Position numbers and translations under genes: made by a program | Part shown: positions 18,382 through 64,000 of the stretch, one piece after another | Layout of the letters: the number at the start of each line of letters is the position of its first letter | Position numbering within the stretch: position 1 is the stretch's first letter | Notes under the pieces: generated by a model | The model's database searches: none | What the model saw: only the letters and a program-made list of their open reading frames with translations | What the model was told of the DNA's origin: nothing | Source: Escherichia coli | GTDB taxonomy: Bacteria > Pseudomonadota > Gammaproteobacteria > Enterobacterales > Enterobacteriaceae | Strand: one strand, 5' to 3' | NCBI RefSeq assembly: GCF_029227855.1 | Contig: NZ_CP074356.1 | Length of the DNA stretch: 64,000 bases

Positions 18382-18395
18382 GGTGTTGTTCTCCT

Positions 18396-20563: not shown

Positions 20564-20719
20564 ATGGCTGTGTATTTTTTGTACATCAGCGCCAGATAGC
20601 TTTAAAACGCTCTGGAAGGAGCTGGAAAAAATTATAGTGAAATACAAATTGTTTTTTCTTATTTATTTCAGTGAATTAATAAAAATAAAAAGTAATGAAC
20701 AGCACAAAAAGCCCATTAA

Positions 20720-20830: not shown

Positions 20831-20904
20831 ATATAAAAAAACAAACAGTAAGCCGGTTTTTCCTGCGACCTTTTCCTGGCTTGCCGGTCTGAGGATGAGT
20901 CTCC

Positions 20905-20922
20905 TGTGTCAGGGCTGGCACA
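20905..20922. promoter_or_regulatory. TGT-N12-ACA site, candidate Psid late promoter activator box
   Basis: TGTgtcagggctggcACA centred ~80 bp upstream of the sid ATG. Confidence 0.45.
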
Positions 20923-20994
20923 TCTGCAATGCGTCGTGTTGTTGTCCGGTGTACGTCACAATTTTCTTAACCTGAAGTGACGAGGAGCCGGAAA

Positions 20995-22226: not shown

Positions 22227-22299
22227 GGGCTGCCGGTTAACCCCGGCCGTCGCCGCACACCGTATTTTTATTCTTCAGCATGATGAGAAAGAGATAACG

Positions 22300-22872: not shown

Positions 22873-23036
22873 AACTCCCCGAAAATCCGTCCGATTTTAC
22901 TGAAAAAAGCCATGCATCGATAAGGTGCATGGCTTTGCATGCGTTTCCCTGCCTCATTTTCTGCAAACCGCGCCATTCCCGGCGCGGTCTGAGCGTGTCT
23001 GTGCAACTGCATTAAAACCGCCCTGCAAAGCGGGCG

Positions 23037-23055
23037 GGCGAGGCGGGGAAAGCAC
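23037..23055 (+). other. P2/P4-type cos site
   Basis: Exact 19-mer GGCGAGGCGGGGAAAGCAC, the P2/P4 cohesive-end sequence as I recall it, between psu and the cargo operon. Confidence 0.78.
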
Positions 23056-23076
23056 TGCGCGCACGAGAGTAAAACA

Positions 23077-23739
23077 TTACTCAATTGAAAAATGTAACAT
23101 TCCTCTCTCTCTCGGTGTAATGGTGTTGGGATGAACTAACCGTTCCATTTCAAAACCAAAATCATGATAAGCAGTATTATAAAAAGAGCTTAAAATAAAT
23201 TTCACAAACGTTACCGGACATAATGGTGACGACAATGGTATCCGGCAATTTTTAAACTGACCTAGGGTTAGGTGTGCTGCTGGATGAATAACATCATTAG
23301 CGTCATCAGGGGCATAATCCACTCGTATCGGAACGGGTAAAATTGATTTTTGGACAATGTCAGCATAAAAGTTGCTTTCGTCTAAATATAACTCAGGGTC
23401 ATTCTGGAATGATTCGTAATTAGGCGCGGGGAAATAACATAGTCTTTCTTTTACAAGTTTCATTCGACGATCAAACTGAAATAAAAGATGGAGTAACCCA
23501 CCATCTAATAATTTGATATTATATTGCCTTTTTTCGTCCAAGAAGTTATAGATATCAACATACTCAATATTTCTTAATGCAATTGAAGTATCAGCGAATC
23601 CGCTATAGCTGACATAATAATATTCTTTATCCCGTGTTATTACAGGATAGTTTTGTGCGTCACTGATACCCACTGATATCAGATGAGATGTGATTTTTCT
23701 AATTGCTGCGCAAATGCTACTTGAGTTCATCTCATTCAC
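23077..23739 (-). CDS. Hypothetical protein, second gene of the satellite cargo operon (candidate defense partner/effector)
   Basis: 220-aa ORF; start overlaps or lies 1 nt after the stop of the upstream helicase-like gene; AT-rich; no recognisable catalytic motif or TM segment. Confidence 0.7.
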   Translation of the reverse strand: MNEMNSSSICAAIRKITSHLISVGISDAQNYPVITRDKEYYYVSYSGFADTSIALRNIEYVDIYNFLDEKRQYNIKLLDGGLLHLLFQFDRRMKLVKERLCYFPAPNYESFQNDPELYLDESNFYADIVQKSILPVPIRVDYAPDDANDVIHPAAHLTLGQFKNCRIPLSSPLCPVTFVKFILSSFYNTAYHDFGFEMERLVHPNTITPRERGMLHFSIE

Positions 23740-25828
23740 CCTTCAGTTGCTTAATTAAAGCAAGGCGTAATTCTTCTGGTATATCTTCAACTCTAACTTG
23801 TCCATCCAATAGAACCATGAGATTATGGGCGTTCAATTTAGCTTGGTGTACTCTTTTTCTCTCTTGAGAAGTCATATCCCTGTTCACCAGTCGCATTTTT
23901 TTACGCTCTGCTTCTGTTGGGTATGTAAATTCCAGTTTAAATCCTCTTTGTTTCACCTCATTGTATTCGTTAATCAGGCCATCAAAGGAAGAACCCACAC
24001 CACATACACGAAGCCATGCTTTAGTTCTTGTCATTGCAGTAAAAAGGATATTTCTACGCTTTGCCAGTTCATAATCCACGTTGCAATAATGAGCATCCAT
24101 GATGTATACCATAGCTGCTTCGTTTCCCTTTGCTCTGAATATGGATGTAAATGTTACACTATTGTCTGAGAAAAACTCATCAGGAGAGCTTGTAATTCCA
24201 GCTATAGATGTATTAATTCCGTTTTGGAATAAAAGGTCACGCAGATAACCTACTTCATTTCTCATACGTATTGTATCTGGGTGAATTACAACAATGTCGC
24301 TAGGTAATATCTCTTCCTCATGAATATTTTTAAATATTTCCTGCGCAATCCAATTAGATTGAGAATGCTTGTCTTCAAATTTAACAAACTGGATCATCTC
24401 ATCAATTGAGTTATGTGCACTCAATAGGGATGGGCTAGATTTCGTTGTCCTTGATAATATAACCTCCTTTCCCTCAACTAATTCACCATCTATTTTTTCA
24501 TAACCAATCTCTGTCCATAATCCTTCAAAATCAAACATCTGAATTATTGGTTTATGATAAATACCAAACCCTAAAGCATGAGCCGTGGTTAAGATTGGGC
24601 CTGGATTTCGATAACAAATGTCTAAAGTTATATCTTGTTCTTCACTGGTGAAACTAACAATTGGTTTTCCATGCTCGTCTACTCCCCAAATTTGTTCAGG
24701 AGAAGGCATGGATGAATCCCCAAGATTTTGTAATTCATCATAAGCGTAAACTAATCGTTTCTTTTCCCCTAGCAAAGAATAACATATGCGGAGAAACTCA
24801 ATTGAAAAATCTTGAGCCTCATCAATAAGGATGAAATCATATAATTTCTTATCTTCTTTTTTATTATCGAGGAAGTTCTTACAGGCAGCCTGAAAAGGTG
24901 TTTCATTAAATTCTGCAAGACGACGTGCGCCGTTATAATCGTAATAAGGTATATTATGTGCCACACATGCGTTGTAATATAAACCTTCTGTTTTAGAGCC
25001 GCCCCAGGCATGAATAATGTCTACGTTATCCCAATCAATTCCATTATCATCTGCGAATGCTGAGACTAAATGTTTTAGTTGCTCTTTGAGAGAGCGACTA
25101 TTGAAAGTAACTGCTATTTTCCAGTGAGGATTTTGTGAGTGTATATGTGCAATTTTTCGAGCGAGAACAATAGTCTTACCTGAGCCAGCAAGCCCACGAA
25201 TCCTTTGGACATTATCAATATTGACCAAGACGGCAGTCGTTTGACTAGAATCAAGAGTGGCAAGTGAATTCTCCAATTTTTTTAGTACGCTACCCTTTGA
25301 GTCAATCTGTCTGACATAGCTTCTTTTTCTCTTGGGCTTCAATTTTGAAAGTGATTGAACATGGGATAGTAAAGTTTCAAGAAGGGAACCATCATCCCAG
25401 GTAATGTCATTGAGAATAGATAATATTTCATCAACATTGGAACTAATGCTTAAACCACTGTCACAATCAAAATCATCAATATTTATACAGTTTGGTGCGA
25501 AAACAATACTGTTCACAGGTACGTTTAATATTCTGTTTTTAGTCAGTGCTTTTACTTCAGAAAGTTTTGCGACGAATTTCATGTGCATTTCGTCAATGAT
25601 ATCAATATCATCTTGGGTTAACTCTCTTTCCTCATTGAAATGGAAAATGACAACACCATGCTTTGATGAGCAAATTAGACCATCAAGAGTAACATTGTTT
25701 TCGCTTAGAAAAATAACAGGAAAACCGCGATAATAATATCCAGTTATATCATTTATCTTTCTTATTGAATTTTCTAGAATATCAGAAACAGTATGATTCT
25801 GAGGTTTCATTCCCAATATTTCAATCAT
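23732..25828 (-). CDS. SF1 (UvrD-like) helicase-family ATPase with ~200-aa N-terminal domain of unknown function; candidate defense protein
   Basis: 698 aa; Walker A GLAGSGKT (res ~212-219), motif II LIDEAQDF (res ~334-341), C-terminal FRAKGNEAAMVYI and FTAMTRTKAWL resembling UvrD-like helicase C-terminal motifs; GGAG Shine-Dalgarno 8 nt before the ATG; start overlaps the int stop. Confidence 0.85.
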   Translation of the reverse strand: MIEILGMKPQNHTVSDILENSIRKINDITGYYYRGFPVIFLSENNVTLDGLICSSKHGVVIFHFNEERELTQDDIDIIDEMHMKFVAKLSEVKALTKNRILNVPVNSIVFAPNCINIDDFDCDSGLSISSNVDEILSILNDITWDDGSLLETLLSHVQSLSKLKPKRKRSYVRQIDSKGSVLKKLENSLATLDSSQTTAVLVNIDNVQRIRGLAGSGKTIVLARKIAHIHSQNPHWKIAVTFNSRSLKEQLKHLVSAFADDNGIDWDNVDIIHAWGGSKTEGLYYNACVAHNIPYYDYNGARRLAEFNETPFQAACKNFLDNKKEDKKLYDFILIDEAQDFSIEFLRICYSLLGEKKRLVYAYDELQNLGDSSMPSPEQIWGVDEHGKPIVSFTSEEQDITLDICYRNPGPILTTAHALGFGIYHKPIIQMFDFEGLWTEIGYEKIDGELVEGKEVILSRTTKSSPSLLSAHNSIDEMIQFVKFEDKHSQSNWIAQEIFKNIHEEEILPSDIVVIHPDTIRMRNEVGYLRDLLFQNGINTSIAGITSSPDEFFSDNSVTFTSIFRAKGNEAAMVYIMDAHYCNVDYELAKRRNILFTAMTRTKAWLRVCGVGSSFDGLINEYNEVKQRGFKLEFTYPTEAERKKMRLVNRDMTSQERKRVHQAKLNAHNLMVLLDGQVRVEDIPEELRLALIKQLKGE

Positions 25829-27011
25829 TTTGAACTCCGGTAGATAAATTCATCAAAAAATCCGAGTATTTTTGCATCATATATTTTCTTTTATCAAGAT
25901 ACAAAGCATGATTATATGTGCCTCGGATAGTATTCTTATCAACATGTGCGAGCTGAATCTCAATCCATGCGCTCTCAAATCCCATTTCATGAAGAATTGT
26001 CGATAGTGTATGCCTAAAACCATGACCAGTAGTTCTTCCCTTATAACCTAATGATTCAATAACTTGGTTTACACTTTCTTTGCTTATCGGTTTTCTACGA
26101 TCATTTCTGCCAATAAAAACATAGGGATAGTCCGATGTTATCGGTTGTAGTTGTTTAAACAGTTCAATTACCTGAGATGATAAAGGTACTATATGTGGCC
26201 GACGCATTTTCATCCGTTCAGCAGGTATTTCCCAGATACCTTTTATCAAATCAATTTCACTCCAAGTTGCAAAACGCATTTCCTGCGTCCTGACTCCTGT
26301 CATCATTAGGATCTTGGTTGCGTTTTTGGTAATAATACTTCCAGTATATGACTCTAGATCTCTAACAAAATGAGGTAGCTCTTCCGCGGATAAAAACGGA
26401 TGATGCCTTTGCTTGGGAATAGCCAAAGCGATTGCTAAATCAGGCGCCGGATTGTATTCAGCACGGCCAGTGATGATCGCGTAGCGAAACACTTCTCCAC
26501 ATCGTTGGCGAACTTTTCTGGTTTTCTCCAACGCTCCACGTTTTTCGATGCGCTTAAGTACTTCAAGCAGTTCTAATGGCTTAATTTCAGATATTGGGCG
26601 TTTACCAATGAAAGGAAAAACGTCCTGTTCGAATGTTTTAATAATTTCCTCCCGATAAGCGATAGTCCAGCGATCTGCTTTTGCTGCATGCCATTCTCTG
26701 CTAACTGACTCAAAAGAATTTTCAGTTGATAATTTTTGAGCAAGTTTCTGAGCCTTCCGTTCTTCTACTGGGTCTATGCCGTTTGCTACCTGCTTACGTG
26801 CAGTATCACGTTTCTCTCGTGCTTCTGCGAGGCTAACAAGTTCGTAACTACCAAATGACATTAGCCGTGCTTTACCGGCGAAACGAAAGCGGAAGCGCCA
26901 GCCCTTTGAACCGTCTGGCTTGATGAGTAGTGACAAACCGTGCCCATCATTCATTGTATATGGTTTGTCTTGTGGTTTTGCGCGTTTGATTTGTATATCG
27001 GTTAGAGCCAT
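25821..27011 (-). CDS. int: P4-type tyrosine integrase
   Basis: 396 aa; catalytic HGFRHT...(R)...Y motifs in the C-terminus; N-terminal P4-integrase-like region; lies next to selC. Confidence 0.93.
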   Translation of the reverse strand: MALTDIQIKRAKPQDKPYTMNDGHGLSLLIKPDGSKGWRFRFRFAGKARLMSFGSYELVSLAEAREKRDTARKQVANGIDPVEERKAQKLAQKLSTENSFESVSREWHAAKADRWTIAYREEIIKTFEQDVFPFIGKRPISEIKPLELLEVLKRIEKRGALEKTRKVRQRCGEVFRYAIITGRAEYNPAPDLAIALAIPKQRHHPFLSAEELPHFVRDLESYTGSIITKNATKILMMTGVRTQEMRFATWSEIDLIKGIWEIPAERMKMRRPHIVPLSSQVIELFKQLQPITSDYPYVFIGRNDRRKPISKESVNQVIESLGYKGRTTGHGFRHTLSTILHEMGFESAWIEIQLAHVDKNTIRGTYNHALYLDKRKYMMQKYSDFLMNLSTGVQND

Positions 27012-27173
27012 GTGTATAACTGAAAACTGCGTATGAAGATTCTATACACATTACTATACATATTTTTCGCGGATTCAGGGAGATGATCTCGGACTATTAC
27101 GGACAAGATGATTATTTATGATATTGAATATAAAGGATTTTATGGAGTATCTCGGAACTGGCTGGATGAAGTT

Positions 27174-27268
27174 TGGCGGAAGATCACAGGAGTCGAACCT
27201 GCCCGGGACCGCTGGCGGCCCCAACTGGATTTGAAGTCCAGCCGCCTCACCGGAGACGACGATCTTCC
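27174..27268 (-). tRNA. selC: tRNA-Sec (selenocysteine tRNA, UCA anticodon)
   Basis: 95-nt match to the selC sequence as I recall it, on the minus strand, including long variable arm and CCA end. Confidence 0.93.
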
Positions 27269-36032: not shown

Positions 36033-36899
36033 ATGAAAAAGCGTCGGAAGGAACCGGAAACGCTACGTGAACACTGTCGCCATATTTTTGGTGATGAGCC
36101 GCCAGTGCTCTGTGTATGGGAAACGGAATTTGATTACGCAGATGCCGAACTCAAGGCGCTGGCGGCTAAAGAGTGGCAGCAGATCAGCGAATGGGATTTG
36201 AGTGCTTACTATGTACTCAATCTCGTTTATAACGAACCGATGCAAATAGAGTTGTTTCGCTATCTGTTTCCGCTCTGCCTGGCGCAATGGCATGAAACCG
36301 TTTTAGCTGGCGGTTATGGTGATCACTTCGAAGAATCCTTAATGAAGGCATTGTGTCGGCCCTATCTCTGGCAGGAGATGATGAATGCTTCCCAACGCCA
36401 GCAGGTACGGCAATTTTTACTGGACACCGCGTTGCAGCGTATGGATAACGAGCGTGGTTTCAATAACGTTCTTTGCTGGCTGGCGGTGTTCAATACTCTG
36501 GGTGGGGCCGCGCCGTTAATTCGTTCTCTCTGGTCGCGCTGGTGGGCGCTGGATACGCCAGGAAAAGCGGTGTGTGCTATTCAGTATGCCGCGCATCTAA
36601 TTTATCCCATAGAAGCCAATCCGTTATGGTCGCAAGAATGGATAGGCTGGGGGCATCCATTAGGCCATAAAGATGGCTGGTCCTCTGATAATCGCGCTTT
36701 TCTTCGCCAAATGTTAACACCTGAAATGATTGTGGCTGGCGTACAGGCAGCGGCTGAAATTCTGCGTGGTGAACCGGAAGGCGCAATGGCGGCGCGAATT
36801 GCACAGGATGCGTATGAGGCAATGGATATCCTCACTATCCAGATTGAAGATTTACTGCGTGACTTGTCTTGTGATGAGTCTGGTCATGCGTTGGAGTAA
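36033..36899 (+). CDS. Hypothetical protein (288 aa), not recalled in K-12 at this position
   Basis: ATG 2 nt after the gltS stop; protein-like composition; 3' end overlaps the recG 3' end by 16 bp. Confidence 0.5.
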   Translation: MKKRRKEPETLREHCRHIFGDEPPVLCVWETEFDYADAELKALAAKEWQQISEWDLSAYYVLNLVYNEPMQIELFRYLFPLCLAQWHETVLAGGYGDHFEESLMKALCRPYLWQEMMNASQRQQVRQFLLDTALQRMDNERGFNNVLCWLAVFNTLGGAAPLIRSLWSRWWALDTPGKAVCAIQYAAHLIYPIEANPLWSQEWIGWGHPLGHKDGWSSDNRAFLRQMLTPEMIVAGVQAAAEILRGEPEGAMAARIAQDAYEAMDILTIQIEDLLRDLSCDESGHALE

Positions 36900-45592: not shown

Positions 45593-46417
45593 CTATTTCT
45601 TCTCTGTAATTTTTACACTGTTTTCCAACTGCTTGATGCTGACCTGCGGGGTCGGCAACTCCTCAGGCATGGTTCCGCCAAGTTCCTGAATGGTTTGCCT
45701 CACCTTGCTACCCACGTCAAAGTGTGTGGTATTAGCTTGCTGTTTTGAATTCACGCCATCCCGCTTGAGTTTTTCTTCTGTTTGGGTAGCTCGAAAGAGA
45801 TTAGCCGCCAGTTCTGTTGAACCCATATGATCCAGGATCTTCTGACTCTTTTTCAGCCCCTTCCGCTGATGGATGGCTTTCTGATCTAATCCACCATACA
45901 GCCCCCGGTAACCATGATTCTGAAATATGGCGAAATCGATAGCTGTCGCTACCCCAGCTTGCTGCGCTGCCTCAACCAATTGTTTGTTATGTTCTTTCAA
46001 TTCATTTCTCAGAAAAAGACGCTTTTCGTCTTCACGAAGTTGCCTGAAAGCTTCATCGTCAGCCAGCTCCTGCCGTCGGGTCTGGATAGCAAAATAAGTT
46101 TGCCCTGCCGCAATAACCGGTTTCGCAGGGTCGCCGTTTTGTACTACCAGGTAACAGGCATAGCGGGAGAGATGAACATCTTCAAGTTCTCGTTGAGCCC
46201 CTGAACCTAATACAACCATTTTGGTGGTTTCAACGAAATGGTCAGATGCAGCTTGATTGCTGGCTTCGCACGCTTGAGTCGCGCGGGCCAGTACCTTTTG
46301 AAAATTGCGCCAGTCCCGATAATCCAGTAACGGTGCCAATTCTCTAGCTGACCAAAATTCTTGCCCTTCAGTGCCATAATGCCGTATTTCTTCAAAAGGT
46401 TGATGATGTTCGTTCAT
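45593..46417 (-). CDS. dinD: DNA damage-inducible protein D
   Basis: 274 aa from MNEHHQ; LexA box in its promoter. Confidence 0.87.
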   Translation of the reverse strand: MNEHHQPFEEIRHYGTEGQEFWSARELAPLLDYRDWRNFQKVLARATQACEASNQAASDHFVETTKMVVLGSGAQRELEDVHLSRYACYLVVQNGDPAKPVIAAGQTYFAIQTRRQELADDEAFRQLREDEKRLFLRNELKEHNKQLVEAAQQAGVATAIDFAIFQNHGYRGLYGGLDQKAIHQRKGLKKSQKILDHMGSTELAANLFRATQTEEKLKRDGVNSKQQANTTHFDVGSKVRQTIQELGGTMPEELPTPQVSIKQLENSVKITEKK

Positions 46418-46637: not shown

Positions 46638-47501
46638 TTACTCAATATTCTGAATCTGCTCGCGCATCTGCTCAATCAACACTTTCAGCTCGATGGCGGA
46701 GTTTGTCACTTCGGCATTGATAGATTTCGACGCAAGAGTGTTCGACTCGCGGTTGAATTCCTGCATCATAAAGTCCAGACGACGACCAACGGCTTCTTTT
46801 TTCTTCAGAATGTTGTAGGTCTCTTTGACATGCGCTTCCAGGCGGTCCAGTTCTTCGGCAACGTCAATTCGTTGTGCCAGCAGAACCAGCTCCTGCTCCA
46901 GACGGTTGTTTTCCAACTGAACCTGAGCATCTTCCAGCTTCGCGACCAGACGCTCACGCTGCCATTGCAGGATTTCCGGCATATGGGCGCGGACTTTGAC
47001 CACTTCGGCGGTGACGCCTTCCAGACGCTGCTCGATCAATGCTTTCAGCGCCTGACCTTCGGTTTCGCGCGCGACGATAAAGTCGTCCAGCGTACCATCC
47101 AACGCCGCGAGAATTTCAGCGGCAATCGCGTCGAGATCCTGCTCCTGGGCTGCCATCACGCCCGGCCAGCGTAGAATATCAACCGGGTTGATTTCCCCTT
47201 CGTCACTCTGCATTTTTACCCAGTTCGCGGCAGTTACCAGCTGTTTAGCCAGTTTTTCATTGAGGATCAGCTCACCTTGTGCGCTAACATCTGGCTCATA
47301 GCGCAGGGTACATTCCACTTTACCGCGCGTCAGGCGAGAACGAATACGCTCGCGAACGACAGGTTCAAGGCTACGGAACTGCTCCGGCAGACGAAAGTAA
47401 GTTTCCAGATAACGCTGGTTTACCGAGCGCATTTCCCAGGTTGCGCTCCCCCATTCACCCTTGATTTCACGCCGGGCGTAGGCGGTCATACTGCGGATCA
47501 T
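46638..47501 (-). CDS. yicC: YicC-family stress-induced protein (UPF0701)
   Basis: 287-aa ORF recognised as YicC. Confidence 0.9.
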   Translation of the reverse strand: MIRSMTAYARREIKGEWGSATWEMRSVNQRYLETYFRLPEQFRSLEPVVRERIRSRLTRGKVECTLRYEPDVSAQGELILNEKLAKQLVTAANWVKMQSDEGEINPVDILRWPGVMAAQEQDLDAIAAEILAALDGTLDDFIVARETEGQALKALIEQRLEGVTAEVVKVRAHMPEILQWQRERLVAKLEDAQVQLENNRLEQELVLLAQRIDVAEELDRLEAHVKETYNILKKKEAVGRRLDFMMQEFNRESNTLASKSINAEVTNSAIELKVLIEQMREQIQNIE

Positions 47502-47627
47502 AGACGTTCCTGTTTATAAAAGGAGAGGTGGAAGGATTATAGCCATCGATGCCTTGTCAGGATAGGAATAACCGCCGGAAGTCCGTATAATGCGCAGCCA
47601 CATTTGTTTCAAGCCGGAGATTTCAAT

Positions 47628-48344
47628 ATGCGTCCAGCAGGCCGTAGCAATAATCAGGTGCGTCCCGTTACCCTGACTCGTAACTATACAAAACATGCAG
47701 AAGGCTCGGTGCTGGTCGAATTTGGCGATACCAAAGTGTTGTGTACCGCCTCTATTGAAGAAGGCGTGCCGCGCTTCCTGAAAGGTCAGGGCCAGGGCTG
47801 GATCACCGCAGAGTACGGTATGCTGCCGCGTTCTACCCACACCCGTAACGCTCGTGAAGCGGCGAAAGGTAAGCAGGGTGGACGCACAATGGAAATCCAG
47901 CGTCTGATCGCCCGTGCTCTTCGCGCGGCAGTAGATTTGAAAGCGCTGGGTGAGTTCACCATTACGCTGGACTGCGACGTGCTTCAGGCTGATGGTGGCA
48001 CGCGTACCGCGTCGATTACGGGTGCCTGCGTGGCGCTGGCAGATGCGCTACAGAAGCTGGTGGAAAACGGCAAGCTGAAAACCAACCCGATGAAAGGGAT
48101 GGTAGCCGCAGTTTCTGTCGGTATTGTAAACGGTGAAGCAATTTGCGATCTGGAATACGTTGAAGACTCAGCCGCAGAGACCGACATGAACGTAGTGATG
48201 ACCGAAGACGGGCGCATCATTGAAGTGCAGGGGACGGCAGAAGGCGAGCCGTTCACCCATGAAGAGCTACTCACCTTGTTGGCGCTGGCCCGAGGGGGAA
48301 TCGAATCCATTGTAGCGACGCAGAAGGCGGCGCTGGCAAACTGA
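47628..48344 (+). CDS. rph: Ribonuclease PH (full-length)
   Basis: 238 aa from MRPAGR; intact C-terminus. Confidence 0.92.
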
Positions 48345-48350
48345 TTTTTA

Positions 48351-48378
48351 AGGCGACTGATGAGTCGCCTTTTTTTTG
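48351..48378 (+). terminator. pyrE attenuator (intrinsic terminator between rph and pyrE)
   Basis: GGCGAC-tgatga-GTCGCC hairpin followed by an 8-T run just after the rph stop. Confidence 0.7.
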
Positions 48379-48409
48379 TCTGTAGAAAAGTAAGATGAGG
48401 AGCGAAGGC

Positions 48410-49051
48410 ATGAAACCATATCAGCGCCAGTTTATTGAATTTGCGCTTAGCAAGCAGGTGTTAAAGTTTGGCGAGTTTACGCTGAAATCCGGGCGCAAAA
48501 GCCCCTATTTCTTCAACGCCGGGCTGTTTAATACCGGGCGCGACCTGGCACTGTTAGGCCGTTTTTACGCTGAAGCATTGGTGGATTCTGGCATTGAGTT
48601 CGATCTGCTGTTTGGCCCTGCTTACAAAGGGATCCCGATTGCGACCACTACCGCCGTGGCGCTGGCGGAGCATCATGACCTTGACCTGCCGTACTGCTTT
48701 AACCGCAAAGAGGCAAAAGACCACGGTGAAGGCGGCAATCTGGTTGGTAGCGCGTTACAAGGACGCGTAATGCTGGTAGATGATGTGATCACCGCCGGAA
48801 CGGCGATTCGCGAATCGATGGAGATTATTCAGGCTAATGGCGCGACGCTTGCTGGCGTATTGATTTCGCTTGATCGTCAGGAACGGGGGCGCGGCGAGAT
48901 TTCGGCGATTCAGGAAGTTGAGCGTGATTACAACTGCAAAGTGATCTCTATCATCACCCTGAAAGATCTGATTGCCTATCTGGAAGAGAAGCCGGAAATG
49001 GCGGAACATCTGGCGGCGGTTAAGGCCTATCGCGAAGAGTTTGGCGTTTAA
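48410..49051 (+). CDS. pyrE: Orotate phosphoribosyltransferase
   Basis: 213 aa from MKPYQRQ; PRPP-binding motif [13 protein letters not shown]. Confidence 0.93.
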
Positions 49052-49087
49052 AGAAACTCGCCGGATGAAAAGTCATCCGGCGTCATA

Positions 49088-49684
49088 TTACTGCAACTGC
49101 GCGGCAATTAGCGGCCAGCGGGCGTCAAAATCATCCGTCGGGCGGTATTTAAATTCGCTGCGGACAAAACGTGACAGCATACCTTCACAGAAGGCCAGGA
49201 TCTGGCTTGCCAGCAGGGTTTCATCGGTGGTGTAACCTTCACCCTCACGCATTCTCTTTTCACGCAATACCTGGCGCAGCTGCGCTTCAATACGCTCGAA
49301 CAGCTGGTTGATACGCCCTTGCAGGCGATCCTGTTCAAACATCAGCGCATGACCAGTGAGGATGCGGGTCAGGCCAGGATTACGCTCACCAAAACCGAGA
49401 AGCAGCAACACAATCAGACGCAGGCGCGCTGTGGTGTCTTTCTCATCTTTCAGAATCAGGTTGATGCGAGTAATCAGGCTATCTTCGATAAACTCAATCA
49501 GGCTATCGAACATGCGGGTCTTACTGGGGAAGTGGCGATACAGTGCCGCTTCGGAAACGCCGACAGAGGCGGCCAGTTTTGCCGTCGTGATACGTTGGCT
49601 TCCATCGCTGGATTCCAGCATCAGCGCCAGAGACTGAAGTATTTCCTCGCGACGGTTCCTTTTCGCAGTTTGTTTTTCTGCCAT
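49088..49684 (-). CDS. slmA: Nucleoid occlusion factor SlmA (TetR family)
   Basis: 198 aa from MAEKQTAK; TetR-type HTH. Confidence 0.92.
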
Positions 49685-49790
49685 GTTACAAAATACCCCT
49701 GAAAATAAGCACTTGCCAGGCGGCACCCACGCTATGACCGCAAACGAAATGTTTGCGGCTATGTTATGACGTTATTCGGATGCGTATGTG

Positions 49791-50249
49791 TTACTGACGA
49801 CCAGAGTGACCAAAGCCGCCTTCACCGCGGTCGGTGGCGTCGAAATCTTCCACCAGATTAAATTCAGCCTGTACTACCGGAACAAAAATCATCTGGGCGA
49901 TGCGTTCGCCAGGTTGAATGGTGAAGCTGTCCTGACCACGGTTCCACACGGAAATCATCAACTGGCCCTGATAGTCAGAATCGATCAATCCTACCAGGTT
50001 ACCAAGCACGATACCGTGCTTATGTCCCAATCCGGAGCGCGGCAGCATCATTGCCGCCAGTGAAGGATCGGCAATATGAATCGCCAGCCCGGTCGGAACC
50101 AGCGTAGTGTCACCCGGAGCCAGTTCTACGGCGTCGTCGAGACAGGCACGCAGGTCAAGTCCGGCAGAGCCAGAGGTGGCATAAGTCGGGAGCGGAAATT
50201 CCTTCCCAACGCGCGGGTCCAGAATCTTAACGTCGATTTTTTTCATCAT
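49791..50249 (-). CDS. dut: dUTP diphosphatase
   Basis: 152-aa ORF with dUTPase motifs. Confidence 0.93.
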
Positions 50250-51447
50250 AACGGGTCACGATCTCGTCGAGTAATAATTGGCCAAGGAGCTCTTTGCGCT
50301 CAAGCGGTAAGACTTTATCTCCGTCCTGCCAGAAAAGGTGTAATGCGTTGTTGTCGCTGTTAAATCCTTGAGTTGGCTGGGAAACATCGTTCGCGCAGAT
50401 CAGATCAAGGTTTTTACGGATACGTTTTTGCCGGGCGTATTCTTCCACATTATTTGTTTCGGCGGCAAATCCAACGACGTAGGGTCGATGGTCTTTTAGT
50501 GCGGCAACGCCTGCGACGATATCGGGGTTTTTAACCATTTTTATTGTTAATTCATCACCCTGCGTGGCCTGCTTTTTGATTTTCTCTGGGGCCACGGTAG
50601 CTGCGCGATAATCCGCCACGGCGGCGCAGCCGATAAAAATATTTTGCTGCTGTACAGAAGCATTCACGGCGGCTTCCATTTCCAGCGCGGTCATCACATC
50701 AACACGTTTAACAAACGGTGGCGTCGGTAGTGAAACCGGACCTGATACCAGCGTGACGTTCGCGCCACGACGGGCAGCGGCGGCGGCGATAGCAAAACCC
50801 ATCTTGCCGGAGCTGTGATTAGAGATATAACGCACGGGATCGAGCGGTTCACGCGTCGGGCCGGCGGTAATCATAATGTTCAGATGTTTCAGGTCGTTGA
50901 CGGGCGAAAAATGCGCTACCGCCATATCCACAATGGTTAACGGATCGAGCATTCGCCCAGGACCGATATCACCACAAGCCTGACTGCCACTGTCTGGCCC
51001 CCAGATGAGCAAACCACGGGAAGCAAGCACCTCTAAATTATGCTGCGTGGCAGCGGCACGGTACATCTGCTGGTTCATGGCGGGGAGCACGGCTACAGGC
51101 GCAGGTGTAGCCAGACAAATCGTCGATACCAGGTCATTCGCCATTCCGGCAGCAACACGGGCAATCAAATCTGCCGTGGCAGGGGCGAGAATCACTAAAT
51201 CAGCCCATTTACCCAGCTCAATATGGCCCATAGCGGCTTCGGCTGCCGGGTCCAGCAGACTGTCGGAAACGGGATAACCAGAAACCGCCTGCAAGCTAAG
51301 TGGGGTGATAAAGGCTTTTGCCGCTTCGGTCATGGCTACGCGGACGTCGGCCCCGCGATCGCGCAAACGACGCACCAGTTCAGGGGTTTTATAGGCAGCA
51401 ATACCGCCGCTAACGCCGAGAACGATTTTTTTACCGGCCAGGCTCAT
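50227..51447 (-). CDS. coaBC: Bifunctional phosphopantothenoylcysteine decarboxylase/synthetase
   Basis: 406 aa from [15 protein letters not shown]; 3' end overlaps the dut start. Confidence 0.93.
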
Positions 51448-55638: not shown

Positions 55639-55989
55639 AGTAAATAGCTGACTTATGGATGTGCTGGGGATTCTATGTATTTAGCTGTGGCTTTACCATT
55701 ACTTTTCCCGTTTTTGACTTAAATAGCAATTTACCCGCCAATTCTTGCTGAACATCTATACTTTTTTTGTATTTTTATGCGATTCATTGATTTCTGCTGT
55801 ACGTGCAGGAAGGAATCGCAGAGCAACAGTGAAAGAATATGGTTGCTAATGATTTTATTTGATTGATTTCTTTATTGAAAATCAACAATGTGCTTAAAAA
55901 TCATTCGGGTCGGATTGCCGCGAAAGAAGTGATACACTAGCGCGTCAATATCAGTGCGGTATCAGTATTCAGGTAGCTGTTGAGCCTGG

Positions 55990-56001
55990 GGCGGTAGCGT
56001 G
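55990..56001 (+). promoter_or_regulatory. ops element (GGCGGTAGCGTG) in the waaQ operon leader (JUMPStart)
   Basis: Exact 12-mer RfaH-recruiting ops sequence ~50 bp upstream of waaQ. Confidence 0.7.
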
Positions 56002-56050
56002 CTTTTTCTGCTTCACCTTAATCGGATAATCTCAACAAAAAGAGTTACTT

Positions 56051-57109
56051 GTGGATAAGCCATTTCGAAGAATTTTGCTCATTAAGATGCGTTTTCATGG
56101 GGATATGTTATTAACTACTCCCGTCATTAGTTCGCTGAAAAAAAATTACCCTGACGCAAAAATCGATGTGCTGCTTTATCAGGACACCATCCCGATCCTG
56201 TCTGAAAATCCAGAGATTAACGCGCTCTACGGCATAAAAAATAAAAAAGCAAAAGCCTCAGAAAAAATTGCCAACTTTTTTCATCTCATCAAGGTATTAC
56301 GTGCCAATAAGTATGACCTTATCGTCAATCTTACCGATCAATGGATGGTTGCTATACTGGTTCGCTTATTAAATACTCGTGTGAAAATTTCCCAGGATTA
56401 TCATCATCGGCAGTCTGCTTTTTGGCGTAAAAGTTTCACCCATTTGGTGCCGTTGCAGGGTGGAAATGTGGTGGAAAGTAACTTATCCGTGCTGACACCA
56501 TTGGGACTTGATTCGTTGGTGAAGCAGACAACCATGAGTTACCCGCCTGCAAGCTGGAAACGTATGCGTCGCGAACTTGATCACGCTGGTGTTGGACAAA
56601 ATTATGTGGTTATCCAACCTACGGCGCGGCAAATCTTCAAATGCTGGGACAACGCCAAGTTTTCCGCTGTGATTGATGCCTTACATGCTCGTGGTTATGA
56701 AGTCGTTCTGACGTCCGGCCCAGATAAAGACGATCTGGCCTGCGTCAATGAAATTGCGCAGGGATGCCAGACGCCACCAGTAACGGCGCTGGCTGGAAAG
56801 GTGACCTTCCCGGAACTTGGTGCGTTAATCGATCATGCGCAGCTGTTTATTGGCGTTGATTCCGCACCGGCGCATATTGCCGCTGCAGTTAATACGCCGC
56901 TGATATCGCTGTTTGGTGCGACAGATCATATTTTCTGGCGTCCCTGGTCAAATAACATGATTCAATTCTGGGCGGGAGATTACCGGGAAATGCCAACGCG
57001 CGATCAGCGTGACCGAAATGAGATGTATCTTTCGGTTATTCCGGCGGCAGATGTCATTGCTGCTGTCGATAAATTACTGCCCTCCTCCACGACAGGTACG
57101 TCGTTATGA
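56051..57109 (+). CDS. waaQ: LPS heptosyltransferase III
   Basis: GT9-family ORF; GTG at 56051, alternative ATG at 56087. Confidence 0.83.
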   Translation: MDKPFRRILLIKMRFHGDMLLTTPVISSLKKNYPDAKIDVLLYQDTIPILSENPEINALYGIKNKKAKASEKIANFFHLIKVLRANKYDLIVNLTDQWMVAILVRLLNTRVKISQDYHHRQSAFWRKSFTHLVPLQGGNVVESNLSVLTPLGLDSLVKQTTMSYPPASWKRMRRELDHAGVGQNYVVIQPTARQIFKCWDNAKFSAVIDALHARGYEVVLTSGPDKDDLACVNEIAQGCQTPPVTALAGKVTFPELGALIDHAQLFIGVDSAPAHIAAAVNTPLISLFGATDHIFWRPWSNNMIQFWAGDYREMPTRDQRDRNEMYLSVIPAADVIAAVDKLLPSSTTGTSL

Positions 57110-58230
57110 TCGTTGCTTTTTGTTTATATAAATATTTTCCCTTTGGCGGTTTGCAGCGTGATTTTATGCGTATTGCTCAGACAGTCGCCGCCCGAGGTCA
57201 TCATGTTCGGGTTTATACCCAGTCGTGGGAAGGCGAATGCCCTGATGTATTTGAACTGATCAAAGTGCCGGTTAAATCGCATACCAATCACGGGCGCAAT
57301 GCGGAGTATTTTGCCTGGGTGCAAAAACATTTACGCGAACATCCCGTCGATAAAGTCGTTGGATTCAACAAAATGCCGGGGCTGGACGTTTATTATGCCG
57401 CTGATGTTTGTTATGCCGAGAAAGTAGCGCAGGAAAAAGGCTTTTTCTATCGCCTGACGTCACGTTATCGCCATTATGCCGCCTTTGAGCGGGCAACCTT
57501 CGAACAGGGTAAGCCGACACAGTTGCTGATGCTGACAGATAAGCAAATCGCCGATTTCCAGAAACATTATCAGACTGAAGCGGAGCGTTTTCATATTCTG
57601 CCACCGGGGATTTATCCTGATCGTAAATATAGCCAGCAGCCAGCCAATAGCCGTGAAATCTTCCGTAAGAAGAATGGAATAACCGAACAACAATATTTAT
57701 TGTTGCAGGTCGGTTCAGACTTCACGCGTAAAGGTGTCGATCGTTCCATTGAAGCACTTGCTTCGTTACCGGATTCGCTGCGCCACAACACATTGCTATA
57801 TGTTGTTGGGCAGGATAAACCGCGAAAATTTGAGGCGCTGGCAGAAAAACGCGGCGTGCGCAGTAATGTTCACTTTTTCTCGGGGCGCAATGATGTCTCG
57901 GAATTAATGGCGGCGGCGGATTTATTACTGCATCCTGCCTACCAGGAAGCGGCGGGAATTGTGCTGCTGGAAGCGATTACTGCAGGATTACCGGTACTAA
58001 CAACAGCCGTTTGTGGCTATGCGCATTATATTGTCGACGCTAATTGCGGCGAGGCTATTGCTGAGCCATTCCGCCAGGAAACATTGAATGAGATTTTACG
58101 CAAAGCGTTAACGCAATCTTCATTGCGCCAGGCCTGGGCGGAAAATGCGCGACATTATGCTGATACACAAGATTTATACAGTCTGCCAGAGAAAGCGGCG
58201 GATATCATAACGGGTGGTCTGGATGGTTGA
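57106..58230 (+). CDS. waaG: LPS core glucosyltransferase I (GT4)
   Basis: 374-aa ORF recognised as WaaG. Confidence 0.93.
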
Positions 58231-59020
58231 ACTTAAAGAGCCGTTTGCCACGTTATGGCGCGGCAAAGATCCTTTTGAGGAAGTTAAAACCTTGCAGGGT
58301 GAGGTATTTCGTGAACTGGAAACTCGCCGTACTCTGCGCTTTGAAATGGCGGGCAAAAGCTATTTTCTCAAATGGCATCGCGGCACGACCCTGAAAGAGA
58401 TAATCAAAAATTTACTCTCATTGCGGATGCCAGTATTAGGCGCTGACCGCGAATGGAATGCGATTCATCGACTGCGGGATGTCGGCGTTGATACTATGTA
58501 TGGGGTGGCATTTGGCGAAAAAGGCATGAATCCGCTGACCAGAACTTCATTTATTATTACCGAAGATCTGACACCAACCATAAGTCTTGAAGATTACTGT
58601 GCTGACTGGGCGACTAACCCTCCAGATGTTCGCGTAAAGCGTATGCTTATTAAGCGTGTCGCGACGATGGTGCGCGATATGCATGCTGCGGGCATTAACC
58701 ACCGTGACTGTTATATCTGTCATTTCCTGCTGCACTTGCCTTTTTCCGGTAAGGAAGAGGAGTTAAAAATTTCGGTAATTGACCTGCACCGGGCGCAGCT
58801 TCGCACGCGCGTTCCACGTCGTTGGCGGGATAAAGATCTTATTGGGCTTTATTTTTCTTCGATGAATATCGGCCTGACTCAGCGGGATATCTGGCGGTTT
58901 ATGAAAGTGTATTTTGCCGCCCCGCTTAAAGACATTCTCAAGCTGGAACAAGGACTGCTGTCGCAAGCAGAAGCAAAAGCCACAAAAATCAGGGAAAGAA
59001 CGATTCGAAAATCGTTGTAA
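58223..59020 (+). CDS. waaP: LPS core heptose(I) kinase
   Basis: 265 aa from MVELKEPF; kinase-like motifs. Confidence 0.92.
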
Positions 59021-59035
59021 TTTCCGGAGAGAAAT

Positions 59036-60052
59036 ATGAGTGCCCACTATTTTAATCCACAAGAGATGATCAATAAGACAATCATCTTCGATGAAAGGCC
59101 AGCGGCGTCAGTGGCATCATCATTCCATGTTGCTTATGGCATTGATAAAAACTTTCTTTTTGGTTGTGGTGTTTCAATCACGTCAGTTTTGTTACATAAC
59201 AACGACGTGAGTTTTGTTTTCCACGTTTTTATTGATGATATCCCTGAAGCCGATATCCAGCGTTTAGCCCAATTGGCGAAAAGCTATCGTACCTGTATCC
59301 AGATCCATCTGGTAAATTGTGAACGGCTTAAGGCATTACCGACGACCAAAAATTGGTCTATTGCCATGTATTTCCGTTTTGTAATTGCAGATTACTTTAT
59401 TGATCAACAAGATAAGATCCTTTACCTGGATGCTGATATCGCCTGTCAGGGAAACTTAAAGCCGCTGATAACAATGGATCTTGCCAATAACGTTGCTGCT
59501 GTTGTTACTGAACGCGATGCTAACTGGTGGTCGTTACGGGGTCAAAGTCTGCAGTGTAATGAACTTGAAAAGGGTTACTTTAATTCAGGTGTCCTGTTAA
59601 TTAATACACTAGCGTGGGCGCAGGAGTCCGTTTCTGCTAAAGCGATGTCGATGCTTGCTGATAAAGCCATCGTTTCCCGTTTAACCTATATGGATCAAGA
59701 TATCCTTAATCTTATCCTGTTAGGGAAAGTTAAATTCATTGATGCTAAATACAATACGCAATTTAGTTTAAATTATGAATTAAAAAAATCATTTGTTTGT
59801 CCAATTAATGATGAAACCGTATTAATTCATTATGTCGGCCCGACAAAACCCTGGCATTACTGGGCCGGTTATCCAAGTGCGCAACCTTTTATCAAAGCCA
59901 AAGAAGCATCGCCCTGGAAAAATGAACCGTTAATGCGGCCAGTTAACTCAAACTATGCTCGTTATTGCGCCAAGCATAATTTTAAACAAAACAAACCAAT
60001 TAACGGGATAATGAATTATATTTATTATTTTTATTTAAAGATAATAAAATGA
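59036..60052 (+). CDS. waaO: GT8-family LPS outer-core alpha-glycosyltransferase (WaaO-like)
   Basis: 338 aa; GT8 DxD motif YLDADI; position directly after waaP as in R1/R4 core types. Confidence 0.68.
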   Translation: MSAHYFNPQEMINKTIIFDERPAASVASSFHVAYGIDKNFLFGCGVSITSVLLHNNDVSFVFHVFIDDIPEADIQRLAQLAKSYRTCIQIHLVNCERLKALPTTKNWSIAMYFRFVIADYFIDQQDKILYLDADIACQGNLKPLITMDLANNVAAVVTERDANWWSLRGQSLQCNELEKGYFNSGVLLINTLAWAQESVSAKAMSMLADKAIVSRLTYMDQDILNLILLGKVKFIDAKYNTQFSLNYELKKSFVCPINDETVLIHYVGPTKPWHYWAGYPSAQPFIKAKEASPWKNEPLMRPVNSNYARYCAKHNFKQNKPINGIMNYIYYFYLKIIK

Positions 60053-60068
60053 AATTGAGAAAAGTTAA

Positions 60069-61064
60069 ATGAATGAATTTATAAAAGAACGGTTTTCGTA
60101 TTTAGCAGATAATAAAAAAGAAAACGCCCCAGAGCTAAATGTTTCCTACGGTATCGATAAGAATTTTTTGTATGGTGCTGGCGTTTCAATTTCTTCCGTT
60201 TTGATTAATAATTCAGATATTAATTTTGTCTTTCATGTTTTCACTGATTATGTGGATGATGATTATTTAAAGTCATTTAATGAAACAGCAAAACAATTTA
60301 ATACCTCAATTATTGTATATTTAATTGACCCCAAATACTTTGCTGATCTGCCGACGTCACAGTTTTGGTCGTACGCGACATACTTCAGGGTATTGTCTTT
60401 TGAATATCTGAGTGAAAGTATTTCCACACTGCTGTATCTGGATGCCGATGTTGTTTGTAAAGGAAGCCTGAAACCTCTCACAGAAATTATATTTAAAGAT
60501 GAGTTTGCTGCGGTCATTCCTGACAATGATAGTACTCAGGCGGCATGTGCAAAACGCCTCAACATTCCCGAAATGAATGGACGTTATTTCAATGCAGGCG
60601 TTATCTATGTCAATCTTAAAAAATGGCATGAAGCAAATTTGACACCGTATTTACTCAAACTTTTACGAGGGGAAACTAAATATGGCTCTCTTAAATATTT
60701 AGATCAGGATGCGTTGAATATCGCATTTAATATGAATAATATCTACCTTGCGAAGGATTTTGATACTATTTATACCCTGAAAAACGAACTTTATGATCGT
60801 AGTCATCGAAAGTATCAGCAAACCATTACCGATAAAACAGTGTTGATTCACTATACAGGGATAACTAAACCATGGCATAGCTGGGCTGGATATCCGTCTG
60901 CATCATACTTTAATATCGCGCGTGAACAATCTCCCTGGAAGAAATATCCTCTTAAAGAGGCGCGGACTGTTGCAGAAATGCAGAAACAATATAAGCATCT
61001 GTTTGCCCATGGTGAGTATATAAAAGGCATAACTTCATTAATTAAGTACAAGCTTAAGAAATAA
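60069..61064 (+). CDS. waaT: GT8-family LPS outer-core alpha-glycosyltransferase (WaaT-like)
   Basis: 331 aa; GT8 motif YLDADV; second GT8 before the kinase. Confidence 0.62.
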   Translation: MNEFIKERFSYLADNKKENAPELNVSYGIDKNFLYGAGVSISSVLINNSDINFVFHVFTDYVDDDYLKSFNETAKQFNTSIIVYLIDPKYFADLPTSQFWSYATYFRVLSFEYLSESISTLLYLDADVVCKGSLKPLTEIIFKDEFAAVIPDNDSTQAACAKRLNIPEMNGRYFNAGVIYVNLKKWHEANLTPYLLKLLRGETKYGSLKYLDQDALNIAFNMNNIYLAKDFDTIYTLKNELYDRSHRKYQQTITDKTVLIHYTGITKPWHSWAGYPSASYFNIAREQSPWKKYPLKEARTVAEMQKQYKHLFAHGEYIKGITSLIKYKLKK

Positions 61065-61073
61065 ATTACTCTT

Positions 61074-61766
61074 ATGATTACAAGTATACGTTATCGCGGC
61101 TTCTCATTTTATTACAAAGATAATGATAATAAATATAAAGAAATCTTTGATGAAATACTGGCCTATAATTTTAAAACAGTAAAAGTATTACGTAATATTG
61201 ATGATACCAAAGTATCATTGATTGATACGAAATATGGTCGCTATGTTTTTAAAGTCTTTGCCCCGAAAACGAAAAGGAATGAACGTTTTTTAAAATCTTT
61301 TGTAAAAGGTGACTACTATCAGAATTTGATCGTTGAAACCGATCGTGTCAGAAGTGCAGGTCTTACTTTTCCTAATGATTTTTATTTTCTGGCTGAGCGT
61401 AAAATTTTCAACTATGCCAGTGTTTTTATTATGCTTATCGAGTATGTCGAGGGCGTAGAGCTCAATGATATGCCGATTATTCCAGAAAATGTTAAAACAG
61501 AAATTAAGGCTTCAATGGAAAAATTGCATGCCTTAAATATGCTATCGGGCGACCCACACCGGGGTAATTTTATCGTTAGTAAAGATGGTGTCAGGATAAT
61601 TGACCTATCCGGTAAAAGCTGTACGGCAGAGCGTAAAGCTCGTGATCGTCTGGCCATGGAACGTCACCTGGGTATTGCCAACGAAATAAAAGATTATGGC
61701 TACTATTCAGTAATCTACAGAACCAAACTACGCAAATTTATTAAAAAATTAAAAGGCAAAGCGTAA
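61074..61766 (+). CDS. waaY: LPS core heptose(II) kinase
   Basis: 230-aa kinase-like ORF in the conserved waaY position. Confidence 0.8.
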   Translation: MITSIRYRGFSFYYKDNDNKYKEIFDEILAYNFKTVKVLRNIDDTKVSLIDTKYGRYVFKVFAPKTKRNERFLKSFVKGDYYQNLIVETDRVRSAGLTFPNDFYFLAERKIFNYASVFIMLIEYVEGVELNDMPIIPENVKTEIKASMEKLHALNMLSGDPHRGNFIVSKDGVRIIDLSGKSCTAERKARDRLAMERHLGIANEIKDYGYYSVIYRTKLRKFIKKLKGKA

Positions 61767-61791
61767 ACCACACAGTCAAAACGGAACCAAC

Positions 61792-62817
61792 ATGGATTTA
61801 TTAGCTGAGAGTATTACTGAAGTCGCTGTCTCTGGGGAAATTGCTAACACCGATCGTGTGTTAAATATCGCTTACGGTATTGACCGTAACTTTTTATTTG
61901 GTGCGGCAGTATCTATGCAATCAGTTGTTATGCATAACCCGGACCTTGCGGTTAAGTTTCATCTCTTTACCGACTACATTGATGAAGATTATCTACAACG
62001 TGTTAATGCTTTTACCAGCAAAAATGCTAACGTTGAAGTAATAATTTATAAAGTCTCCAATGCCTTTATTGATATCTTCCCCAGCCTGAAACAGTGGTCT
62101 TATGCAACATTCTTCCGTTTAGTTGCGTTCCAGTATTTGAGTGAAACTATTGAAAATCTGTTATATATCGATGCTGATGTCATCTGTAAAGGCTCATTAG
62201 CTGGATTGCTTGATATTAATTTTGATGAGGATAAGTTCGCAGCTGTTATTAAAGATGTGCCTTTTATGCAGGAAAAACCAGCGAAGCGTCTGGCTATAGA
62301 GGGACTTCCAGGGAATTATTTCAACGCCGGTGTAGTATATCTGCAGCTTGAAGCATGGGCGAAAAATGATTTTATGAATAAAGCCATTGCTATGCTGGCA
62401 AGTGACCCGCAGCACACGAAGTATAAATGCCTTGATCAGGATATTTTAAATATTCTGTTCTTTGGTCATTGTATTTTTATTAGCGGCGATTATGATTGCT
62501 TTTATGGCATTGACTATGAGTTAAAAAATAAAAGCGATGAAGATTATAAAAAGACCATTACCGATGATACTAAGCTGATTCATTATGTTGGCGTAACGAA
62601 GCCCTGGAACGACTGGACGAATTATCCCTGCCAGAAGTATTTTAATGAGGCTTATCAGGCTTCTTGCTGGAATGATGTGGCGTTTATTCCAGCCACGAAT
62701 GAAAAGCAGTATCAAGTGAAATATCAACATGCAAAGAAAAATGGTGATACGTTTAACGCTTTTATTTACTTCATTAAATTTAAATTAAATAAGTATAAAA
62801 GAAAACTATTTGGATAA
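61792..62817 (+). CDS. waaW: GT8-family LPS outer-core alpha-glycosyltransferase (WaaW-like)
   Basis: 341 aa; GT8 motif YIDADV. Confidence 0.62.
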   Translation: MDLLAESITEVAVSGEIANTDRVLNIAYGIDRNFLFGAAVSMQSVVMHNPDLAVKFHLFTDYIDEDYLQRVNAFTSKNANVEVIIYKVSNAFIDIFPSLKQWSYATFFRLVAFQYLSETIENLLYIDADVICKGSLAGLLDINFDEDKFAAVIKDVPFMQEKPAKRLAIEGLPGNYFNAGVVYLQLEAWAKNDFMNKAIAMLASDPQHTKYKCLDQDILNILFFGHCIFISGDYDCFYGIDYELKNKSDEDYKKTITDDTKLIHYVGVTKPWNDWTNYPCQKYFNEAYQASCWNDVAFIPATNEKQYQVKYQHAKKNGDTFNAFIYFIKFKLNKYKRKLFG

Positions 62818-62901
62818 TAATAAAAATCATGGATGTCTGAGTTACAATAATAATTAAGGATGAGTACTATCATATTTTATTAGTTCAGGCAAGAGAACAC
62901 G

Positions 62902-63885
62902 ATGAGCAATGATTACCCTTTAGTATCCATAATAATACCGACGTATAATTCATCTGATTACATTACTGAAACTCTAACGAAATTAGAAAAACAAACTTAC
63001 CCAAATTTTGAAATTGTTATTGTTAATGATGGTTCTAAAGATAACACATCAAACGTTTTGAGAGAGTATGGGTTAACCCACTCTCGATTAATTATTATCA
63101 ATAAAGAAAATGGCGGTGTTTCGTCTGCCAGGAATACAGGTATCCGCAAGGCGCAAGGACAGTTTATATGTTTTATGGATGATGATGATGAGATAGATCC
63201 TAACTATCTGCTGAAGATGTATACCAGACAACATGAGACGGGAGGGGATGCGATTTATTGTGGGCTTTATGGCCATTATATAAAAGATGGTGTTACTTAC
63301 TCACCTATAAATACAGAGTTTAATGAAGGATCTTTACTTTTCGACTTTTTTTATAAAAAGGTTAGATTCCATATAGGGTGCTTGTTTATAAGAAAACAAC
63401 TTCTGGAAGAGAATAATCTTTTTTTTGATGAAGATTTACGACTAGGAGAAGATCTTGATTTTATCTATCGACTGCTAATTACATGCGATATGTATGCGGT
63501 TCCATATTATATGTATAAGCATAACTATAGAGAAAATTCCTTAATGAACTCATGTAGAACCATCACTCATTATCGACATGAGTCATTTGCGCACGAAAGA
63601 ATCTACTCTTCTGTGATGCAGTTATACAAAGGTAACCGGAAAGAAGAAATTCATACATTATTGAGTCAAAATAGAGCTTATCATAAAACTCGTTATTTAT
63701 GGAATGTTCTACTTAATGGTGATTTTAAACTATTGAATCAATTAGTTGAAAGCAATGATAAAGAATTAAGAGATTGTAATCTTCCTGGCAAGAGAGATAA
63801 GAGACGAGCAAAAATATTAGCATCAAAAAATTATATTCTCTGGAGGATGGTAAGACTGGTAAATAGAAAAAAGAATAAACGTTAG
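62902..63885 (+). CDS. waaV: GT2-family LPS outer-core beta-glycosyltransferase (WaaV-like)
   Basis: 327 aa; GT2 signature IIPTYNS...VNDGSKDNT...DDDD. Confidence 0.62.
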   Translation: MSNDYPLVSIIIPTYNSSDYITETLTKLEKQTYPNFEIVIVNDGSKDNTSNVLREYGLTHSRLIIINKENGGVSSARNTGIRKAQGQFICFMDDDDEIDPNYLLKMYTRQHETGGDAIYCGLYGHYIKDGVTYSPINTEFNEGSLLFDFFYKKVRFHIGCLFIRKQLLEENNLFFDEDLRLGEDLDFIYRLLITCDMYAVPYYMYKHNYRENSLMNSCRTITHYRHESFAHERIYSSVMQLYKGNRKEEIHTLLSQNRAYHKTRYLWNVLLNGDFKLLNQLVESNDKELRDCNLPGKRDKRRAKILASKNYILWRMVRLVNRKKNKR

Positions 63886-64000
63886 ATCTTGCATTAAATA
63901 ACCCATCCTCGTAGCATAGGTTGAAACTATATGTCGTTTTGTTGGAATGAAATTAATTCTGGTATAAAGTCTTTAATTCTCATATTATGTATTTTTTCTT

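Follow-up and report, generated by a model that had tools for sequence, protein, structure and literature searches.

Gene order and features of the rph-pyrE locus

In the stretch of Escherichia coli DNA analyzed here (64,000 nt, hereafter the window), rph lies directly upstream of pyrE on the same strand, and a GC-rich hairpin with a U run is found between the two genes, as expected for the pyrE attenuator (Table 1). The protein encoded by rph shows the two-domain order of ribonuclease PH (RNase PH), with Pfam RNase_PH (PF01138) at residues 10-140 (E-value 1.1e-30) followed by RNase_PH_C (PF03725) at residues 157-222 (7e-16). Against the NCBIfam equivalog TIGR01966 'ribonuclease PH' it scores 380.4 bits (cutoff 141.5; E-value 2.5e-114), and its residues 2-236 correspond to positions 1-235 of the 236 in the model. 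A 238-codon open reading frame with such a match far exceeds chance. The initial annotation had described a full 238-aa RNase PH that ends just before the pyrE attenuator hairpin; the open reading frame, the TIGR01966 match and the 5-nt gap to the hairpin agree with this description. The region had been drawn to end at 48378, which is the G just past the T run and thus one base too far; the coordinates were otherwise correct.

Table 1. Features of the rph-pyrE region (positions in the window)
Feature	Position	Strand	Evidence or remark
yicC-rph intergenic, upstream region of the rph-pyrE operon	47502-47627	+	Base-for-base the same as MG1655
rph, intact RNase PH, 238 aa	47628-48344	+	ATG at 47628, TGA at 48342-48344; open reading frame and translation
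G5 homopolymer, site of the K-12 rph-1 single-G deletion, intact here	48294-48298	+	Alignments with MG1655 and K-12 WG1
Out-of-frame TAG, rph stop if one G is lost (rph-1), unused here	48313-48315	+	In silico deletion
T5 spacer, rph stop codon to hairpin	48345-48349	+	Sequence
pyrE attenuator hairpin, AAGGCGACTGATGAGTCGCCTT	48350-48371	+	9-bp stem, GAUG loop, GC core 48352-48369; terminator scan
T8 run of the intrinsic terminator	48370-48377	+	First two T also paired in the stem
GAGGAG, likely pyrE Shine-Dalgarno (putative function)	48397-48402	+	7 nt before the ATG; read from the sequence
pyrE, orotate phosphoribosyltransferase, 213 aa	48410-49051	+	TIGR00336, 240.6 bits; Pfam Pribosyltran

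RNase PH is a phosphorolytic 3'-5' exoribonuclease that functions in the maturation of tRNA and rRNA; its GGTRT block binds phosphate and its DSAAETD block is the acidic active-site block. The window Rph shows end-to-end homology with the Pseudomonas aeruginosa enzyme (PDB 1R6L/1R6M; E-value 5e-104 for 1R6L) and full-length homology with that of Bacillus subtilis (1OYP; E-value 2.2e-83), both of the same two-domain fold family. These structures are of orthologues from other genera, and the E. coli protein's own structure was absent among the structure matches. At the DNA level, rph of the window is 100% identical to that of strain UMB200201_11, annotated as 'ribonuclease PH' (WP_001247089.1), and the same allele is carried by several natural isolates. 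The equivalog score, the domain architecture and the active-site blocks all identify the product as RNase PH, and the enzyme activity known from the literature may be expected of it. Two minus-strand open reading frames of 108 aa overlap rph (47514-47840 and 47984-48310), and these were taken as antisense artefacts of the coding region.

An intact open reading frame could nevertheless encode an impaired enzyme and serve as a mere translated leader for pyrE. Compared with Rph of the K-12 strain WG1, the window protein does have three amino-acid differences, namely A for V (...VALADAL...), I for V (...EAICDL...) and T for I (...LLTLL...). However, all three are conservative or lie at sites that also vary in the P. 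aeruginosa enzyme, the GGTRT and DSAAETD blocks and their surroundings are identical to those of 1R6L, the equivalog score is far over its cutoff, and several natural isolates share the allele. We regard impairment of this allele as very unlikely. For the source strain, the sequence leads us to expect that RNase PH is normally active and that pyrE is expressed under normal control by pyrimidines.

Upstream of rph, a perfect TATAAT can be read at 47586-47591 in the yicC-rph intergenic region. The scan for consensus promoters gave no -35/-10 pair in front of rph, and a TTGTCA that precedes the TATAAT by 26 nt is too distant; no promoter is claimed for this motif. From the known operon, the intergenic region (Table 1) presumably has promoter function.

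Downstream of rph, the arms of the attenuator hairpin (AAGGCGACU-GAUG-AGUCGCCUU) begin with a first paired base 5 nt past the rph stop codon, and the GC core begins 7 nt past it, so the stop codon is less than one ribosome footprint away from the hairpin. The hairpin alone has a folding energy of -14.7 kcal/mol (z-score -6.2), and none of 200 shuffled sequences was as stable. The intrinsic terminator formed by the hairpin and the T8 run ends 32 nt before the start codon of pyrE. Rfam gave no attenuator family and no match at the gathering score in the region; matches below the threshold (RyhB with 24.5 bits against 55, and others) were put down to generic resemblance among terminators.

The G run and the rph-1 frameshift

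Together with the full-length RNase PH, the initial annotation had pointed to the rph-1 frameshift of MG1655 and W3110, which truncates Rph and reduces pyrE expression, and had proposed an alignment of the rph 3' end with MG1655 as a check. This alignment (NC_000913.3) revealed no frameshift in the window. The fifth G is present: the window has GGGGG where MG1655 has GGGG, and over about 940 nt no other internal indel separates the two, be it in rph, in the attenuator or at the start of pyrE. Between the last substitution in rph (48284) and the first in pyrE (48544), the indel in the G run is the only difference from MG1655. In MG1655, rph is annotated as 'truncated RNase PH' and its translation of 228 aa ends in ...ARGESNPL*; when one G was deleted in silico from the window, a 228-aa protein with the same tail was obtained. 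The simulated rph-1 stop codon lies 29 nt farther upstream than the actual one, leaving 34 nt to the hairpin and 36 nt to the GC core. The window, with G5 and 238 aa, does not carry the rph-1 allele, which is defined by G4, the premature TAG and 228 aa.

The 4G allele was seen in both MG1655 and W3110, as had been claimed, and their low pyrE expression is on record: Jensen (1993), as cited in PMC9997739 and PMC2784333, attributed it to the rph-1 frameshift. Truncation of RNase PH and lowered pyrE expression are likewise described for rph-1 in PMC9997739.

The intact allele is the ordinary one, the norm of the species. An exact 60-mer with 5G was found in 5,169 of 5,423 complete E. coli genomes (approximately 95%), and the exact 59-mer with 4G in 168 of them. 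Among the 60 matches listed for the latter are MG1655, W3110 (NC_007779.1), BW25113, J53, HMS174 and laboratory-evolved derivatives. Three K-12 records have 5G (WG1, EV36 and one 'K-12' record), and rph of WG1 is the MG1655 sequence with one additional G and otherwise identical to it. Browning et al. (2023; PMC9997739) reported rph-1 in EMG2, MG1655 and W3110 and its absence from WG1.

Two assemblies of non-K-12 background have four G. In the clinical E. coli isolate 2015C-3101 (NZ_CP027221.1; locus at 144-859), annotated as 'frameshifted', the 4G run is found on the SNP haplotype of the window. In Kluyvera genomosp. 3 YDC799 (CP022114.1), the identical ...RGESNPL* lesion precedes the start of pyrE (4240) by approximately 100-135 nt. 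The G5 to G4 frameshift is not strictly specific to K-12. These two assemblies are independent of K-12. The G run might be a hotspot at which frameshifts recur, switch pyrE expression and may be open to selection, and not the site of a one-off accident in K-12. We consider this unlikely, and homopolymer errors of assembly or mutations of laboratory passage would explain the 4G runs of 2015C-3101 and YDC799 just as well.

The same reasoning may be turned on the window itself, in that its fifth G might be an error of sequencing or assembly in a gene that is truly frameshifted. Homopolymer runs are classic sites of indel errors, and the two assemblies above show that this run varies between records. 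However, the G5 run is shared by about 95% of the genomes, and five independent assemblies, all of natural isolates (UMB200201_11, VCSW8, A15, STEC1575 and EC23-1020), are 100.0% identical to the window over 25 kb that include the G run (39001-64000). Furthermore, the open reading frame fits the RNase PH model to the last residues, and the rph frame is kept in 111 of the 112 other species surveyed below. A spurious fifth G is therefore highly improbable.

Intact rph can serve as a quick strain marker: a sequence that has it does not come from MG1655, W3110 or strains derived from them. The earlier conclusion that the window is not from MG1655 or W3110 holds on this basis (5G in the window, 4G in these strains), although the G run alone has no power to exclude K-12. 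Its value as a strain marker is smaller than it looks, and this holds both ways, because WG1 has an intact rph and 2015C-3101, which is not K-12, has 4G.

Divergence of the window from K-12

Compared with either MG1655 or WG1, rph of the window has 12 substitutions, which cause the three amino-acid changes described above. In the segment 47819-49345, which starts midway in rph, spans pyrE and reaches into the 3' end of slmA, there are 34 substitutions relative to MG1655 (2.2%), and in the remaining 2,274 nt of 47500-51300 (the upstream region, dut and coaBC) only 2 (0.09%). This patchy distribution looks like a recombination tract, acquired in the lineage of either the window or K-12. Despite 18 synonymous substitutions in pyrE, the PyrE protein is that of MG1655. 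Farther upstream, a stretch of about 213 nt (46172-46384) within the dinD-yicC intergenic region lies outside the megablast alignment to MG1655.

Gene content of the flanks also differs from that of MG1655. At selC, the gene for tRNA-Sec (27178-27268, minus strand), a P4-like satellite prophage of 11.6 kb (15575-27171) is found that is missing from MG1655. It carries genes for an integrase (25821-27011, minus), Psu (22300-22872, plus), Ogr/Delta (21726-22226, plus) and a primase-helicase (16048-18381, minus), together with the C4 antisense and isrK RNAs (19832-20117, minus). Among complete E. coli genomes, JX4-T comes closest to it, with only 99.4% identity, and the five strains identical to the window over the rph region are not among its top matches. 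The cargo in the psu-integrase hotspot (23077-25828, minus) consists of two genes, for a 698-aa helicase and a 220-aa DUF2290 protein, with PADLOC matches to 'Helicase' (PDLC03002, E-value 2e-265) and DUF2290 (PDLC02999, E-value 2.5e-77). We take this to be the candidate anti-phage pair of helicase and DUF2290 known from P2/P4 hotspots.

Between gltS and recG, an open reading frame of 288 aa (36033-36899, plus) starts 3 nt past the gltS stop codon and overlaps the end of the recG frame by 16 nt. MG1655 and JX4-T lack it. Of 5,426 complete E. coli genomes, 1,917 carry it, O157:H7 among them, with the annotation 'hypothetical protein'. A Pfam search with its product gave nothing at E<0.1. The LPS core (waa) cluster (approximately 55960-64000), with a JUMPstart element at 55963-56001, is of a non-K-12 type, and megablast against MG1655 gave no match beyond 58916, among the LPS outer-core genes. 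In UMB200201_11, identical to the window here, the order is rfaQ-waaG-rfaP-waaO-GT8-rfaY-galactosyltransferase-GT2-O-antigen ligase, which resembles the R1 core type.

Neither the haplotype nor the flanking gene content of the window is that of the K-12 lineage. K-12 sources with an intact rph do exist, either because rph-1 was never acquired (WG1 or NCM3722-like strains) or because it was repaired, as in the rph+ revertants of MG1655 that have been built and selected (PMC5933015). A K-12 source of either kind is nevertheless refuted by the alignments, because of the 34 substitutions of the rph-pyrE segment, the 12 of them in rph that separate the window from WG1 as well as from MG1655, the selC island, the additional 288-aa gene and the non-K-12 LPS core cluster. 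The sequences closest to the window are those of natural isolates, at 100.0%.

We conclude, with a probability of about 95%, that the rph-pyrE operon of the window is of the ordinary wild type and that it belongs to a natural E. coli other than K-12. Nothing in the sequence speaks against this reading. There is nothing new in the locus as such, which is a textbook case of attenuation with an allele that was already known.

Spacing of the rph stop codon and the attenuator in Enterobacterales

One genome per species was scanned for the coding pattern of the PyrE N-terminus, which gave 120 loci of Enterobacterales, 112 of them with enough upstream sequence. At all 112 loci, rph is directly upstream of pyrE. 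At 110 of the 112, a perfect hairpin with GCGRC as its core comes after the rph stop codon. A strict terminator finder missed 9 of the 112 hairpins, in which A-T pairs absorb part of the T tail, and a relaxed finder anchored on the core recovered the 110. The G of the core lies 6-13 nt past the rph stop codon in all 110 (8 nt in the window) and 6-8 nt past it in 99 of them; the spacer from the rph stop codon to the ATG of pyrE ranges from 57 to 200 nt across species.

The stem pairs were tabulated by anchoring each hairpin on the GCGRC core, as a MAFFT alignment of the 92 distinct segments left variants with short loops out of register. Compensatory pairs were seen at four stem positions: A-T or G-C (88 and 20), G-C or A-T (97 and 9), A-T or G-C (104 and 1, with 5 G-U intermediates), and T-A against G-C or C-G (68 and 8). 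The two exceptions to the canonical hairpin are the frameshifted Kluyvera record and Budvicia diplopodorum. The latter is the only species of the 112 with an intact rph in which the canonical hairpin and T run are replaced; in their place, a longer GC-rich structure, GGCGACGGAAGCGCCGCTCCTCGGTCGCC, follows rph, no T run is present, and the spacer to pyrE measures 164 nt.

A narrowly constrained distance between stop codon and hairpin, combined with a free downstream spacer, fits the prediction of the model in which a translating ribosome is coupled to the polymerase. In a small way, the survey independently confirms that selection acts on the distance between the rph stop codon and the hairpin, which is a requirement of the coupling model.

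Attenuation model and comparison with known systems

The established attenuation model goes back to Bonekamp et al. (1984) and to Jensen (1993), whose work is cited in PMC2784333, PMC5933015 and PMC9997739. In E. coli, according to the account in PMC2784333, readthrough is raised at low UTP and depends on translation of rph. When the stop codon was moved back towards the attenuator, pyrE expression was restored (PMC2784333; PMC5933015). For the UTP response and the ribosome coupling we draw on this literature, and for the geometry, hairpin stability, spacing and allele frequency on the sequences described here.

According to the model, rph would serve as the translated leader for pyrE as well as the gene for RNase PH. 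A polymerase leaving rph would meet the intrinsic terminator, that is, the hairpin followed by U8. If UTP is low, the polymerase would be slowed, and a ribosome close behind would cover the 5' arm, so that the hairpin does not form and pyrE is transcribed. If UTP is plentiful, the polymerase would outrun the ribosome, the hairpin would form, and transcription would stop. The ribosome would be able to block the hairpin because translation of rph ends only 5 nt before it. In rph-1, the ribosome would stop 34 nt short and could never mask the hairpin, and pyrE would be chronically under-expressed.

A terminating ribosome covers about a dozen nt downstream. From the stop codon of the window, such a footprint would reach into the 5' arm, which starts at 48350, and from the rph-1 stop codon it would fall short by approximately 20 nt or more, which fits the model.

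Compared with known systems, the locus corresponds to the wild-type rph-pyrE operon of E. coli, with the same order of yicC, rph-pyrE and slmA, a 238-aa Rph and an identical PyrE. The stop codon, the T5 spacer, the hairpin, the T8 run and the pyrE leader are base-for-base the same in K-12, and the K-12 and window operons differ only as alleles, by the 12 substitutions in rph and the 18 synonymous ones in pyrE. The rph-1 form of K-12 (MG1655, W3110, EMG2 and BW25113) has the same locus and attenuator sequence, whereas it differs from the window in having G4 instead of G5, a product of 228 instead of 238 aa, and 34 instead of 5 nt between stop codon and hairpin. The attenuator of the pyrBI leader in E. 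coli follows the same logic, with UTP-sensitive pausing of the polymerase and a coupled ribosome that suppresses an intrinsic terminator. However, the pyrBI leader encodes a short dedicated peptide, whereas the leader of the rph-pyrE operon is a full-length enzyme gene, rph.
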